Positions 1-34,532 are shown, counted from the first letter of the stretch. The stretch: 34,789 bases of DNA from Chloroflexota bacterium (GCA_046484685.1 JAWOIM010000197.1:1-34789); one strand, 5' to 3'. A program made the numbers and translations. Notes: a model not told the origin generated them from the sequence alone.

Positions 1-365
1 CTGGCGGCCAGGTCGTCGGTAATAATGCCGACAATGACGCCCGTTGTTTTGCCCTCCCCTTTCACCACATCGACAACCTGTCCCGTCACTTTGCCGTCAG
101 CTACGCGCTTCCAAAAGTTGTATTTTTGGGTAGTGGTGTCAGCAATATGGCCTATTTGGGCAATTTGATCTGGGCGGGGACCGGTAGAGATGTAGACGGA
201 AACGGCCGTTTCGCTGTACTCGCTTGGTTCATGGTAGAGGTAGAGGGCCTTACCGGGTTTGACGTGTTGCTCGATGATGGCCTGGCGGTCGCTCCCATCG
301 TCATTTTGGAAGCTTACACCCACCACTTTGGTGACAAATGTGTAGTGGTCGCTGTGGTCACTCAT
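1..365 (-). CDS. HIRAN-domain protein, N-terminal part (ORF runs off the left edge, so absent from the ORF track)
   Basis: Reverse-strand ATG at 365-363 gives MSDHSDHYTFVTKVVGVSFQNDDGSDRQAIIEQHVKPGKALYLYHEPSEYSETAVSVYI...GVIVGIITDDLAA. It is open to position 1. The VxGVxF...G..L.L.hEP....A..V pattern is typical of HIRAN domains. Confidence 0.7.
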   Translation of the reverse strand, partial: MSDHSDHYTFVTKVVGVSFQNDDGSDRQAIIEQHVKPGKALYLYHEPSEYSETAVSVYISTGPRPDQIAQIGHIADTTTQKYNFWKRVADGKVTGQVVDVVKGEGKTTGVIVGIITDDLAA

Positions 366-391
366 GATTTCCTGCCAATTTGCTGGCTTAT

Positions 392-446
392 TGTTTCAAA
401 ATGAAACAGTTTCGGGTTGACAAACCCGAATCACCTCGCGTATACT
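392..446. promoter_or_regulatory. Divergent control region: dyad TGTTTCA-AAA-TGAAACA (392-408) plus sigma70-like promoter TTGACA (417-422), 18-bp spacer, TATACT (441-446), facing the HTH gene
   Basis: Read directly from the sequence. It lies between the divergent HIRAN (-) and HTH (+) genes. The dyad half-sites equal the canonical parS half-site TGTTTCA. Confidence 0.55.
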
Positions 447-487
447 TTGCACAACTTGTTTAATTTGCTTATAGATTGGAGATTGCC

Positions 488-688
488 GTGGAAGAAAAAT
501 GGCTCACAACAACGGAAGTGGCTGAGCGGCTAAATGCCACCTCTCAGGCAGTGCGGGATTGGATTCGCGCTAAGCAATTCCCCAACGCGCGGCCAAAAAG
601 CCCGGTGCCCAGAAGTCCTTTTGAAATTCCTGAATCCGATGTATTAGCCTTTGAAGAAAGACGGCGGCAATCCATTCACAATCAGTAG
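488..688 (+). CDS. Excisionase/MerR-type helix-turn-helix DNA-binding protein (Xis or regulator)
   Basis: WLTTTEVAERLNATSQAVRDWIRAKQFP resembles the excisionase-family HTH. GGAG at 478-481 lies 6 nt before GTG 488 (the ORF track starts at TTG 476). Confidence 0.7.
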   Translation: MEEKWLTTTEVAERLNATSQAVRDWIRAKQFPNARPKSPVPRSPFEIPESDVLAFEERRRQSIHNQ

Positions 689-698
689 AAAAGATAAG

Positions 699-747
699 AA
701 AACGGCCGTTCCCCGGTACTCTCGCAAAGTTGGAGAACGGCCGTTTA
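699..747. repeat. Two copies of the iterated palindrome AACGGCCGTT (701-710, 736-745) between the HTH gene and the tRNA fragment
   Basis: gaaAACGGCCGTTcc ... gagAACGGCCGTTta, read directly. Confidence 0.9.
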
Positions 748-782
748 AGCGAACCTTAACAGCCAAATAACTTGACCGTTTG

Positions 783-845
783 AGCGGGCATCGGGATTCG
801 AACCCGAGATGACAGCTTGGGAAGCTGTAGTGTTAGCCACTGATC
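783..845 (-). other. 3' portion of a tRNA-Gly(CCC) gene (D-loop to discriminator), putative attP/att core
   Basis: On the minus strand: anticodon arm ACAGC-TTCCCAA-GCTGT (anticodon CCC), T-arm TCGGG-TTCGAAT-CCCGA, and 3' acceptor strand TGCCCGC plus T. No complementary 5' acceptor strand (GCGGGCA) or D-stem 5' strand lies upstream. It sits next to int. Confidence 0.65.
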
Positions 846-903
846 CAGTATACAAAAAATGGCTGTGTTAGTGGGGTATAAAAGAGATACAAAAAAGTAA
901 CAA

Positions 904-32151: not shown

Positions 32152-32169
32152 TAAAGGAGAAAATGAGCA

Positions 32170-32658
32170 ATGGTAGCACGAATAGAAGGTAACTATGGCA
32201 TAGAGGTAGAAAACTTGGAGGTCGGACCGGGTGCAGCGAGGGAAGGAAAACGCCGCATATACATGAAGAATGACGAGTTGTATCAGGTCGATGATCAGAA
32301 TCATGAGACCGCTATTGGCGTGATGCAGATAGCGGGGTGGCTGAATGTCAATGGTGCCAGTACGACAATGACAATCAAGCGTAATAATACGGGTGTAACC
32401 CCATCTATTGCCAACACCAGCAATCTGCAAATGCGGATTTTGCTGGAGAGTACGCCCCTATCCACCATCTGGTGGCATGTCGAGAATTTGTACAATACCG
32501 GTACGGACGAGTTACTCTTGCCCGCTACAGAGCAGGGAACGTTTGGGGCACAGAATGGCGTAGCCATCATTCTGAAAAAAGCCGCTGACGGATTGGATGC
32601 GGTGTTTCCTGCCGGCGGATACAAAATGCCGTTTACGATTTTCATAGACCCCACCTAA
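32170..32658 (+). CDS. Hypothetical tail-associated protein
   Basis: AAGGAG upstream; lower GC than its neighbours; no motif. Confidence 0.55.
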   Translation: MVARIEGNYGIEVENLEVGPGAAREGKRRIYMKNDELYQVDDQNHETAIGVMQIAGWLNVNGASTTMTIKRNNTGVTPSIANTSNLQMRILLESTPLSTIWWHVENLYNTGTDELLLPATEQGTFGAQNGVAIILKKAADGLDAVFPAGGYKMPFTIFIDPT

Positions 32659-32666
32659 GATTTACC

Positions 32667-33551
32667 GTGAATGTTCTGATTTTAGCCAGCGCAGCAGTTT
32701 TCCAGATGTTTTTGCCTCTGGTGATGGACGGCCGTTCCCCACCAAAGGCCGGCATCGCCTTCAGCTCGCACACAGACGGTGCGGAGCGTGTGGCACTGCT
32801 GGGTGACCAGGTGCATTACTGGCGCGGCTGGGCGCGGAGCAGCCCGGCCCAGCCGCTGTGGGGATTGGAGCCAACGCAGGCGCTGTGGTGTGATTTTTTC
32901 TTCCACCCGGTCTACTCCGGAGGGGCGCTGCTGCCGCAATTGCCGTGGCTGGAAATGCTGCCGGCCGAATTCGATGATTGGCTGCTCTTCTTGAATGAGC
33001 CGGACCTGGCCTATCACGGCCGGTATGGTCAATGCAGTGCCGATCCACGCCGGGCAGCAGAGCTTTACGTCCACGTCCGGCAGCGGCTGCCATATGCCAG
33101 GTTGGTGGGGCCGGGCATCAGCCACGTCGACTATCAGCATGGATTCACCTGGCTGGGTGCCTGGTGGGATGAGGTCGAGCGGCTGACGGGCGGGCCGCCG
33201 CAAATGGCGGCGTGGGATATTCATACTTATCTGGCGCATGGGAACCCATTAGCTCCCTATGATGCACTGGAGGCGTGGTTGGCTGAGCGAGGCGTCTACG
33301 ACCCGAAATTCTTCATTAGCGAATTTGGGGCCTGCCTGCCGGCGCGGCTGGTGGCCATGCGAGATGCGTTTGAAGCTGATCCGCGCATCGTGCGCTATTA
33401 CCTCTATGAGCAGTATGGGGCACATTGGGATGGGTCGGGCCGGTGTATTGTTTTGTTTGAGGAGGGCGTGAAACCCCTTCGGCTGACGGAATTAGGATTA
33501 GCATTTGTATATGGGATTGTGCAGCCGGCAGCGGAATGGCAGCCGGAGTGA
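32667..33551 (+). CDS. Secreted glycoside hydrolase (TIM-barrel, Glyco_hydro_cc-like), putative endolysin or depolymerase
   Basis: Signal-like N-terminus MNVLILASAAVFQMFLPLV. LFLNEPD (acid/base NEP) and FFISEFG (nucleophile xEF) motifs. Next to the holin. Confidence 0.6.
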   Translation: MNVLILASAAVFQMFLPLVMDGRSPPKAGIAFSSHTDGAERVALLGDQVHYWRGWARSSPAQPLWGLEPTQALWCDFFFHPVYSGGALLPQLPWLEMLPAEFDDWLLFLNEPDLAYHGRYGQCSADPRRAAELYVHVRQRLPYARLVGPGISHVDYQHGFTWLGAWWDEVERLTGGPPQMAAWDIHTYLAHGNPLAPYDALEAWLAERGVYDPKFFISEFGACLPARLVAMRDAFEADPRIVRYYLYEQYGAHWDGSGRCIVLFEEGVKPLRLTELGLAFVYGIVQPAAEWQPE

Positions 33552-33582
33552 GAACAATATTTAATTTGATGGACTGGAGGAT

Positions 33583-33939
33583 ATGATGGAAATAGCAGAG
33601 TATGTAGGAATGATTGAAGAGGGCTTGACCCTGGTGTTGGGCGGTGGCGTGGGGCTGCTGATTGTGGCGGTGATGTTTTGGATGCGTCAAAATCTGCGGG
33701 AAAAGGAGATGATGCTGGTGATGTGGATCATTGGCCTGGCAGTGGAGGCGGCGGAGCAGCTCGGTGGCGATGGGGCAGAAAAGAAGCGGGCCGCGGTGGA
33801 GATCGTGCAGAAGTGGTTCAACTACTATGGGATCAAGCTGGATGTGGGCCGGATCGGGGAGGGGATTGAGTCAGTTGTCTGGGAGCGTCTCAACTACGAA
33901 CGTTACAAGCCGGCGCGTGACGTTCCTGGCGGGGGGTAA
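33583..33939 (+). CDS. Holin (LL-H family-like)
   Basis: One TM helix (LTLVLGGGVGLLIVAVMFW), then GAEKKRAAVEIVQKWFNYYGIKLDVGRIGEGIESVV. GGAGGA RBS. Confidence 0.65.
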   Translation: MMEIAEYVGMIEEGLTLVLGGGVGLLIVAVMFWMRQNLREKEMMLVMWIIGLAVEAAEQLGGDGAEKKRAAVEIVQKWFNYYGIKLDVGRIGEGIESVVWERLNYERYKPARDVPGGG

Positions 33940-33942
33940 TCT

Positions 33943-34426
33943 ATGCAGAATGAAGATGTGGTAAAAATCATCTTAGCGGAGTTGGCGGAGTTGAAGGGAT
34001 TGTCGCAGGAGGTGGCCCGCGCCACCATGTTTCGCGGCCGACGACCAGGCCGCCTACGGGATTCGCCACCAGCGCATCGAGGAGAAATTCGAGGAATTCG
34101 ACATGCGCCTGTCGCTGGTCGAGCAGCAAATCGTTTACCTGCGGCAGCAGTTGACGCACGCTCCCCGAACACCCTTGCGCGATCCTATGGTGCCGATCAC
34201 CAAGCCGGCGCTGCGGCGACGGCTGCCGGAAGCCATCGCTCGGCACTTTGATCGGTCCGAGTTTGATAATCTGCTTTATCAACTCCATATCCAGGAAGTA
34301 GAAGGGGAGACCGTGGAAGAGCGGGCGCGGCAGTTGGTACTGCTGGTTGACCGCCACGGCCGTGGCTACGAGTTGATTGATGCGCTAAAATATTTGCGGC
34401 CAAACTTGGATTGGAGTGAATATTAG
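33943..34426 (+). pseudogene. Coiled-coil plus EAD-like protein whose frame appears interrupted by a +1 shift near 34030-34034 (alternatively two genes)
   Basis: Frame 1 gives a plausible MQNEDVVKIILAELAELKGLSQEVARATMF, then Arg/Ala/Pro-rich off-frame-like sequence. The +1 frame, open from 33995, continues as AADDQAAYGIRHQRIEEKFEEFDMRLSLVEQQIVYLRQQL... Confidence 0.4.
34103..34426 (+). CDS. Protein with a C-terminal effector-associated-domain (EAD/death-like adaptor)-type sequence
   Basis: GAGGAA lies 6 nt before ATG 34103. LPEAIARHFDRSEFDNLLYQLHIQEVEGETVEERARQLVLLVDRHGRGYELIDALKYLRPN fits the EAD1-like pattern F..sEl..L...L.i......G.t...ka..Lv....r.g....Li.al...rP. Confidence 0.6.
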   Translation: MRLSLVEQQIVYLRQQLTHAPRTPLRDPMVPITKPALRRRLPEAIARHFDRSEFDNLLYQLHIQEVEGETVEERARQLVLLVDRHGRGYELIDALKYLRPNLDWSEY

Positions 34427-34454
34427 CTAACCAAATTCTTAAATTGGTGTCCCC

Positions 34455-34532
34455 AAAACGGCCGTTTCCCCACACTATATAATAGAGCATTATAAAAACG
34501 GCCGTTTCTGGGTGACTGGAAACGGCCGTTTT
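34455..34532. repeat. Three intergenic copies of the iterated palindrome (34457, 34497, 34521) flanking a TATAAT-containing AT-rich stretch
   Basis: caaAACGGCCGTTtcccc ... aaaAACGGCCGTTtctgggtgac ... ggaAACGGCCGTTttt. Confidence 0.9.

Follow-up and report, generated by a model that had tools for sequence, protein, structure and literature searches.

A highly iterated palindrome in a temperate phage is probably its share of a word that marks an Ardenticatenia lineage of Chloroflexota

Introduction

Among described systems, the closest to the one reported here is the highly iterated palindrome HIP1 (GCGATCGC) of cyanobacteria, which occurs at 300-2700 copies per Mb with observed/expected ratios of 55-228 (Elhai 2015, PMC4390886). 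HIP1 carries symmetric extensions, its one-off variants cluster at the first and last positions, and other palindromes replace it in some lineages: where it is absent, alternates are GGGATCCC in Yellowstone Synechococcus, a TCGATCGA derivative and rCCGGy in Oscillatoria PCC 10802, each linked to a matching methyltransferase (PMC4390886). Conservation of HIP1 sites exceeds what codon effects explain, and their distribution is periodic (PMC5861425); they raise transformation efficiency in a methylation-dependent manner (bioRxiv 10.1101/2024.09.10.611283) and correlate with DNA-uptake machinery (bioRxiv 10.64898/2026.06.24.733823). Here we analyse a palindrome, the 10-mer AACGGCCGTT with its 8-bp core ACGGCCGT, that is iterated in a contig of 34,789 bp from a Chloroflexota bacterium (GCA_046484685.1, JAWOIM010000197.1:1-34789; the whole stretch is hereafter the window), which gene annotation identifies as a temperate siphovirus-like phage.

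Short words are iterated in other settings also. The DNA uptake sequences (DUS) of Neisseria and the uptake signal sequences (USS) of Pasteurellaceae are present at ~1 copy per kb genome-wide, fall in several coding frames with effects on the encoded peptides, and come in lineage 'dialects'. Very-short-patch repair in E. coli (Dcm/Vsr, CCWGG) acts with a sequence-specific bias, through which the word that it targets becomes enriched in the genome and in resident elements. The stoperators of Cluster A mycobacteriophages place tens of copies of a short motif over the phage genome, within genes too. The Ardenticatenia and Promineifilaceae, which enter the present account as hosts, are filamentous Chloroflexota common in wastewater, sediment and vent metagenomes. 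A search of the available literature returned no description of the word reported here, nor of iterated palindromes in Chloroflexota, Ardenticatena or Promineofilum.

Results

Abundance and anatomy of the palindrome

An initial annotation had counted the perfect 10-mer 29 times by hand, and our recount gave exactly 29, with a single coordinate displaced (8566, correctly 8556). The copies start at 201, 701, 736, 1140, 1636, 1865, 4096, 4162, 5820, 5866, 6414, 7941, 8556, 8630, 8715, 9178, 9654, 10953, 12259, 12563, 13148, 14822, 23390, 24654, 24911, 28663, 34457, 34497 and 34521. This compares with 0.02 copies expected in the window, with a maximum of 1 in dinucleotide-preserving shuffles, and with 0.32 copies predicted over the whole window by a third-order Markov model. 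Allowing at most one mismatch brings the total to 50 (29 perfect and 21 one-mismatch) against 1.36 expected; the figure of about 21 near-copies was thus right as annotated, while three of their coordinates required correction (7420 to 7410, 8026 to 8027 and 26316 to 26317).

The excess is therefore real, but the unit proposed for it was too long. The most informative unit is the 8-mer ACGGCCGT, of which the window holds 61 copies (positions 202..34529; 1.75 per kb) against 0.53 expected, 29 of them within AACGGCCGTT and 32 with different outer bases; the 10- to 14-mer forms are a preferred extension, rAAACGGCCGTTTy. The flanks on both sides show A (83%) and next G/A, the signal fading further out, and beyond ~2-3 bases on each side of the 10-mer the likeness of flanks fades, so that no longer repeat or mobile element is involved. 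One-off variants of the 8-mer in the window favour the outermost position (1/8), as they do in the motif-rich contigs described below. The hexamer CGGCCG alone is also in excess, with 171 copies in the window, 110 of which are not part of an 8-mer.

The longer forms and local clusters bear out the same anatomy. The 14-mer GAAACGGCCGTTTC starts at 199, 4094, 6412 and 7939, as annotated, and at 8554 rather than 8564; the perfect 20-bp palindrome that had been noticed at 7936..7955 is confirmed as GGCGAAACGGCCGTTTCGCC and lies within an FtsK-like gene. Nearest-neighbour spacing in clusters is as short as 24-46 bp. An intergenic cluster places three 12-mers, AAACGGCCGTTT, in 74 bp (34457..34530), adjoining at 34533-34548 a second palindrome that is considered below. 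Two copies 35 bp apart (701..745) lie between an HTH_17 gene (476-688) and a tRNA-Gly-like fragment with the integrase gene, a putative phage attachment (attP) region, and two further intergenic copies, AAACGGCCGTTTT and AAAACGGCCGTTTTTT, are 46 bp apart (5820..5875). Within coding DNA, the gene at 3629-4288 has three copies (4096..4171, plus strand; two perfect, that at 4135 with one mismatch), each encoding E/K-T-A-V-S in a repeated peptide context, and the SLT/M23 gene has three perfect copies (8556..8724, plus strand) that use two frames, read as T-A-V, R-P-F and T-A-V.

Override of codon choice and peptide sequence

Placed on the open reading frame map, the 29 10-mers encode T-A-V (8), K/Q/E-R-P-F/L (8) or N-G-R-F/L/S (5), or are intergenic (8), in agreement with the initial report of the motif in intergenic DNA and in all three coding frames. 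Codon-preserving shuffles within genes (n=1000) yielded 1.26 +/- 1.05 copies of AACGGCCGTT in coding DNA, with a maximum of 5, against 21 observed; for the 8-mer the same shuffles yielded 6.5 against 47. The excess thus withstands a procedure that had been named in advance as able to overturn it.

A place is called permissive here if the encoded amino acids are compatible with a given palindromic 8-mer. In the window, ACGGCCGT is realised at 47 of 58 permissive coding places (81%); the runner-up among palindromes with enough such places, CCGGCCGG, reaches 24%, and the median of the other palindromes is 0. Synonymous choice is therefore extremely skewed to the motif, and the contention that it is the DNA rather than a peptide that is favoured is upheld. 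The tripeptide T-A-V is encoded as ACG-GCC-GTN in 16 of 17 instances, a share that codon usage would put at 18%. Compared with amino-acid shuffles, the peptides are themselves in excess: T-A-V occurs 17 times against 4.5 (~4-fold), E-T-A-V 9 times against 0.25 and K-R-P 10 times against 1.1. Taken together, the near-uniform coding of T-A-V and the enrichment of these peptides indicate that the motif prevails over codon choice and has left a visible mark on the proteins.

Presence in chromosomes of Ardenticatenia

Scanning for two motif copies 10-40 bp apart gave 29 matching stretches in IMG/VR, and metagenomes gave at least 120. Many of the scanned contigs carry ACGGCCGT at 1-3.7 per kb, with observed/expected ratios of 50-160 in ~50 metagenome contigs and 14 viral contigs. 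The ~50 motif-rich metagenome contigs (427 kb) contain 780 perfect copies of ACGGCCGT, and within them the observed/expected ratio of one-off variants is 1.9-3.8 at position 1/8 and near chance level (0.2-1.3) at positions 2-4. Three cyanobacterial contigs caught in the same scan rank alongside those of Chloroflexota, with HIP1 at 1.5-2.1 per kb and observed/expected ratios of 86-105. Several motif-rich contigs from metagenomes are parts of longer ones (55-134 kb) that carry housekeeping genes. For the biotin carboxylase of contig L177, the best named relatives are from 'Ardenticatenaceae bacterium', 'Candidatus Leptofilum sp.' and 'Ardenticatenales bacterium', all Chloroflexota; Ca. Leptofilum is classified in Ardenticatenia, Promineifilales.

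Chromosomal loci were also picked by protein homology to accC and not by the motif. The Ardenticatenia loci from metagenome-assembled genomes (MAGs) fetched in this way carry ACGGCCGT at 1.3-1.6 per kb. Copies number 23 in 18 kb of GCA_039028395.1 (locus L201) and, in 21.5 kb each, 33 in GCA_020634455.1 (L203, on a 4.27-Mb contig), 35 in GCA_965223525.1 (L204, Ca. Leptofilum) and 33 in a syntenic ENA contig (L212). The Ardenticatenales MAG GCA_020634575.1 (L211), also over 21.5 kb, has a single copy, and the top palindrome of this motif-negative locus is CCGGCCGG. Overall, chromosomal DNA of the class Ardenticatenia, Ca. Leptofilum and an "Ardenticatenaceae" MAG included, carries the word at 1.3-2.3 per kb; its flanks (rAAACGGCCGTTTy) and its three frames, T-A-V being dominant, are those of the window, and intergenic copies in the motif-positive hosts are proportional to non-coding DNA. 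The host flank consensus (A 70%, A 45% and G ~45% on each side) is the same in the window.

Saturation is also common to host and phage. In motif-positive hosts the word is realised in 79 of 83 permissive contexts; in a TerL relative of the phage that is free of the motif, the figure is 1 of 10. The accC and pccB genes of four genomes contain few sites, and these are variably present (3 variable columns). The initial suggestion of a HIP1-like host signature is thus borne out by the accC-fetched chromosomes, and, as set out below, by relatives of the phage that are without the word; its fallback, a binding site specific to the phage, fails, as hosts do carry the motif.

Relatives of the phage

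No close relative of the window was found among deposited phages. Portal relatives (at most 52% identity; from genomes and IMG/VR, prophages of Caldilineaceae MAGs included) and TerL relatives at 61-68% identity contain no motif copies. Conversely, hardly any proteins are common to the window and the 14 motif-rich viral contigs, and a different phage (L213) with only the integrase in common (71% amino-acid and 69% nucleotide identity) is also motif-rich. The motif is present in unrelated phages and absent from the TerL and portal relatives; hence it tracks the host and not the phage lineage. In the integrase gene, one site is conserved between the window and L213 and each lineage has one private site, a single orthologous comparison in which sites turn over by substitution.

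A further observation concerns L207 (Logan SRR12358676), a phage contig whose TerL is 68% identical to that of the window. It is without ACGGCCGT and has an iterated palindrome of its own, TGCCGGCA, 17 times in 16 kb, which suggests that the palindrome imposed on phages of this group varies with the host.

Motif and saturation point to a motif-positive Ardenticatenia lineage as the host of the phage. Rarer palindromes were compared also: 15 of 64 hexamer palindromes have zero copies in the window, where 2-17 are expected of each, among them CGATCG, GGGCCC, GTGCAC, ACGCGT, GACGTC, GAGCTC, CTCGAG, AGGCCT, AGATCT and GATATC. This is restriction-site avoidance alongside a hyper-abundant palindrome, and accords with the remark that restriction-type palindromes are usually depleted in phages. 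Between the window and the motif-rich phages the avoidance profiles correlate with rho = 0.73; for the WBZL01 chromosomal contigs, which avoid largely the same set of hexamers, rho is 0.65.

Uneven distribution within the phage genome

The motif had been said to saturate the genome; the overall excess is as described, whereas an even spread is not found. The early/lysogeny region (1..13100, plus strand; integrase, HTH, FtsK-like, SLT-M23, actin-like and ParB-like proteins and ORFans) is motif-rich, and the packaging/head/tail region (13700..34400, plus strand; TerL, portal, protease, major capsid protein, tape measure and tail proteins) is motif-poor. Of the 29 10-mers, 25 fall within 1-15 kb or the final 350 bp and only 4 within 15.0-34.4 kb (binomial p = 5e-6), and the late region holds 20 of the 61 8-mers (p = 4e-4), while CGGCCG outside the motif is evenly spread over the window. 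Permissive contexts are realised to a like degree in both parts (28/35 early, 18/21 late) and differ in their supply, at 9.0 per 1000 amino acids early and 3.2 late. We take the uneven distribution to arise because constrained structural proteins offer fewer permissive peptides, though equally saturated; equal saturation early and late in turn implies that the pressure is the same throughout. The same effect is seen in the hosts, where accC and pccB, which are highly conserved, have few sites.

A mosaic origin of the two halves was considered as the cause of this contrast and rejected: their strand-symmetric tetranucleotide signatures are alike (r = 0.88), and saturation explains the contrast better, though codon usage and GC skew differ between them. 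The skew is ~0 over 1-12000 and rises to +0.2 to +0.3 over 12000-34400, third-position G moving from 0.32 to 0.43, despite nearly all genes of both halves lying on the same strand.

The phage genes that define these regions are as follows. An HTH_17 protein (476-688) and a tyrosine integrase (904-1923, minus strand) precede an FtsK/SpoIIIE-like ATPase (6880-8124), a protein with SLT and M23 domains (8215-9219), an actin-like protein (9216-10217), a ParB-like protein (11227-11922), an HNH endonuclease (12590-13015) and TerS (13084-13569). These are followed by TerL (13741-15450), a Dam-class adenine methyltransferase (17137-17877, minus strand), the portal (18436-20547), a protease (20558-21274), the major capsid protein (21311-22663) and the tape measure protein (26773-28554). 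Directly downstream of the integrase gene, at 788-853 on the minus strand, is a tRNA-like fragment that scores 25 bits against the Rfam tRNA model, for which the gathering score is 29; its anticodon arm CCC corresponds to Gly. ARAGORN reported no complete tRNA; the fragment is probably the core of attP, corresponding to the 3' part of a tRNA-Gly gene in the host. The contig ends (1-12 and 34778-34789) have only 7 nt in common (CTGGCGG) and no longer terminal repeat, too little to demonstrate circular closure. At 8189-8246, ATTTGACTACCTG is present in three tandem-like copies, spaced by 12 and 24 bp, that straddle the listed start of the SLT/M23 gene (8215). The 560-bp intergenic stretch between methyltransferase and portal (17878-18435) has ~5-7 iterons, TATCGyTAGATrTrACGATG, with repeats reaching back to 17648, and is a candidate replication origin or regulatory array.

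Methyltransferases and a palindrome confined to the phage

The phage methyltransferase is a Dam-class N6-adenine enzyme, which consequently cannot be cognate for CGGCCG. The single C5-methyltransferase seen in a host (locus L151) adjoins a PstI/BsuBI-type endonuclease. Both the phage enzyme and this PstI-like restriction-modification system were therefore rejected as cognate candidates, neither fitting CGGCCG.

The second palindrome of the window, TGTTCGCGTGCGAACA, has 7-bp arms around GT and 13 matches at up to three mismatches on both strands, against 0.3 expected. Perfect copies are at 8433-8448 (minus strand), 12030-12045, 21304-21319, 31444-31459 and 34533-34548, and degenerate ones at 4073 and 11235. 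Apart from one, the five perfect copies fall between genes and immediately precede gene blocks (12135 onward, the major capsid gene, and 31477 onward); the palindrome is missing from all 213 fetched loci. It likely serves as an operator, as a late-promoter element or as an RNA hairpin; one copy contains the GTG that is listed as the start of the capsid gene.

Discussion

We propose that the palindrome is the phage's share of a genome-wide, hyper-abundant word that marks an Ardenticatenia lineage (Promineifilaceae such as Ca. Leptofilum, 'Ardenticatenaceae' MAGs and relatives), a counterpart of HIP1, and we put the probability of this at about 80%. Copies would arise by point substitution wherever a sequence is one or two steps away from the word and the protein tolerates the change, and it is by such an origin that we account for copies in all three frames and between genes without shared flanks. 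The force responsible would reach all DNA that replicates in the cell, that of prophages too. A temperate phage, with its integrase and tRNA-Gly-like attP fragment, could thus have been exposed to it until ~81% of synonymous opportunities had been converted, its weakly constrained early proteins being pushed towards T-A-V, N-G-R and K-R-P-F peptides.

It is tempting to speculate on what this force may be. Tentatively, and at close to even odds, we favour a bias of repair or conversion that is sequence-specific, operates throughout the cell and changes near-cognate sequences to the motif. It would resemble very-short-patch repair or the methylation-directed mismatch repair that Elhai modelled for HIP1. 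Near-total saturation, the 24-46 bp spacing and the cost to proteins seem to fit such a drive better than selection for a set density.

Several observations weigh against this account. Regarding the drive, no enzyme for it was identified, and among one-off variants in the 427 kb of motif-rich contigs there is no C-to-T-specific depletion as Vsr-type repair would predict, which led us to reject a Vsr-type fingerprint. Regarding the host, no CRISPR or attB match links the phage to a host genome, and exact-match scans of the loci and of IMG/VR for the tRNA-Gly attP fragment found nothing. The tetranucleotide signature of the window is closest to that of the motif-negative locus L211 (r = 0.88), with motif-rich viral contigs also near, and the window is enriched in CCGGCCGG (17 copies) and GGCCGG (93) to levels otherwise seen only in L213 and L211. 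Given this enrichment, the exact host is probably a lineage outside the sampled loci; alternatively, the phage may have a mixed host history. Moreover, the host evidence comprises ~20 kb per MAG and contigs chosen by the motif itself. Finally, intergenic copies are 2-3-fold over-represented in the phage and not in the host loci, which hints at some local use.

The foremost alternative is that the motif is a selected signal of the host, whether for DNA uptake and transformation, as a methylation-dependent mark of strand or 'self', or as a nucleoid-organising site, and that phages keep it since DNA with it fares better. Its density of ~1-2 per kb does resemble that of uptake sequences, one integrase site has been kept between two phages at 69% nucleotide identity, and intergenic copies are in excess in the phage. 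HIP1 itself lends support through its site conservation and periodicity (PMC5861425) and through its methylation-dependent boost to transformation and correlation with uptake genes (bioRxiv 10.1101/2024.09.10.611283; 10.64898/2026.06.24.733823). Nevertheless, we regard a selected signal as less likely than a repair or conversion bias: the use of 81-95% of synonymous opportunities, with sites 24-46 bp apart, exceeds any need of the density type, proteins are visibly remodelled, unrelated phages have reached host-like density, and no methyltransferase for the site was found, the phage enzyme being Dam-class.

Far less probable is that the copies are binding sites of a phage protein, comparable to stoperators or to parS for a ParB-like protein. 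At 12 bp the palindrome has the dimensions of a site for a dimeric HTH protein, the gene set of the phage includes HTH, ParB-like, actin-like and FtsK-like proteins, and the intergenic clusters at 701-745, 5820-5875 and 34457-34530 would suit such an array. However, density is equal in host chromosomes and in phages with unrelated genes, most copies are intragenic and in all frames, and TGTTCGCGTGCGAACA, which is truly specific to the phage, is better suited to a regulatory role; because the motif is present in hosts, a phage-specific array is largely refuted and essentially excluded. That the excess is a by-product of codon usage, of a repeated peptide or of a small mobile repeat (of the repetitive extragenic palindrome or miniature inverted-repeat transposable element type) is ruled out to the point of being negligible: GCC, GGC, CCG and CGG are indeed preferred codons, CGGCCG is generally common and some copies have the E-T-A-V-S context in common, but the codon-preserving shuffle gave 1.26 copies against 21, three frames are used and 8 copies are intergenic, permissive places are saturated, likeness of flanks fades ~2-3 bases beyond the 10-mer, and the word is absent from relatives encoding homologous proteins.

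Returning to the reading of a host-wide word imposed on resident DNA, it is possible, and we advance this with more reserve than the repair bias taken by itself, that ACGGCCGT constitutes an independently evolved 'HIP system' in Chloroflexota, kept by a sequence-specific drive of repair or conversion that overwrites 80-95% of the synonymous opportunities and remodels proteins, in chromosomes and phages alike. Were the drive real, a contrast of gene presence between motif-positive (GCA_020634455.1, GCA_965223525.1) and motif-negative (GCA_020634575.1) relatives could make the enzyme or enzymes findable, and would test competing models of HIP1, a question now 30 years old. A second, phylogenetically independent case also renders the hypotheses put forward for HIP1, namely methylation-directed repair, DNA uptake and chromosome structure, testable by comparison across phyla. 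Phages near host saturation argue that the force acts on any resident DNA, and offer a measure of how far codon choice and protein sequence can be overridden. In practical terms, the word is an alignment-free marker that ties uncultivated phages to Ardenticatenia/Promineifilaceae hosts, with at least 14 motif-rich viral contigs already obtained from the double-motif scan. It also carries a caution, in that repeated motifs of phages are to be compared with host chromosomes before a regulatory reading is adopted.

With respect to known systems, the stoperators are like the present motif in being one short word in tens of copies, intragenic ones included; they are unlike it in being asymmetric, oriented with transcription, bound by a phage repressor and absent from the host, whereas this motif is palindromic and host-wide. 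The bias of Dcm/Vsr in E. coli is modest and concerns a 5-mer, whereas here an 8- to 12-mer is ~100-fold enriched without C-to-T depletion. The uptake sequences DUS and USS are similar in density, in their use of coding frames, in their effects on peptides and in lineage specificity. They differ in being asymmetric and read by a known receptor and uptake machinery, ACGGCCGT being a perfect palindrome; to our knowledge, competence is not known for these Chloroflexota. Of the DUS and USS words, the window contains none but one canonical Neisseria DUS 10-mer, GCCGTCTGAA, at 14810-14819, where it adjoins a motif copy, probably by chance. With this single copy, no matches to the dialects and a palindromic motif, a relation to DUS or USS was rejected.

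The nearest likeness is to HIP1. Both are GC-rich, perfect 8-bp palindromes, ACGGCCGT being present at ~1750 per Mb in the window and 1300-2300 per Mb in host loci, and both occupy every coding frame as well as non-coding DNA, with symmetric extensions beyond the 8-mer. Likewise, one-off variants lie at the outer positions, sites are gained and decay by point substitution, and the word is lineage-specific, with a related genome (L211) that lacks it. As with the alternate HIPs, one palindrome is swapped for another, L211 having CCGGCCGG and the phage contig L207 TGCCGGCA in place of ACGGCCGT; the alternate HIPs lie within cyanobacteria, each with its matching methyltransferase. The system differs from HIP1 in that ACGGCCGT holds CGGCCG and GGCC, not GATC and CGATCG, in its phylum, Chloroflexota (Ardenticatenia), in that no cognate methyltransferase was found in the phage enzyme and one host locus examined, and in the presence of the word in phages at host-like saturation, of which we found no report for HIP1. 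Indeed, in its palindromic core, its hyper-abundance, its chromosome-wide occurrence in all frames (over ~20 kb per genome), its excess beyond codon usage and its outer-position variants, ACGGCCGT has properties by which highly iterated palindromes are recognized. Highly iterated palindromes were already known as a kind; new are the phylum, the sequence and the near-host saturation of a phage.

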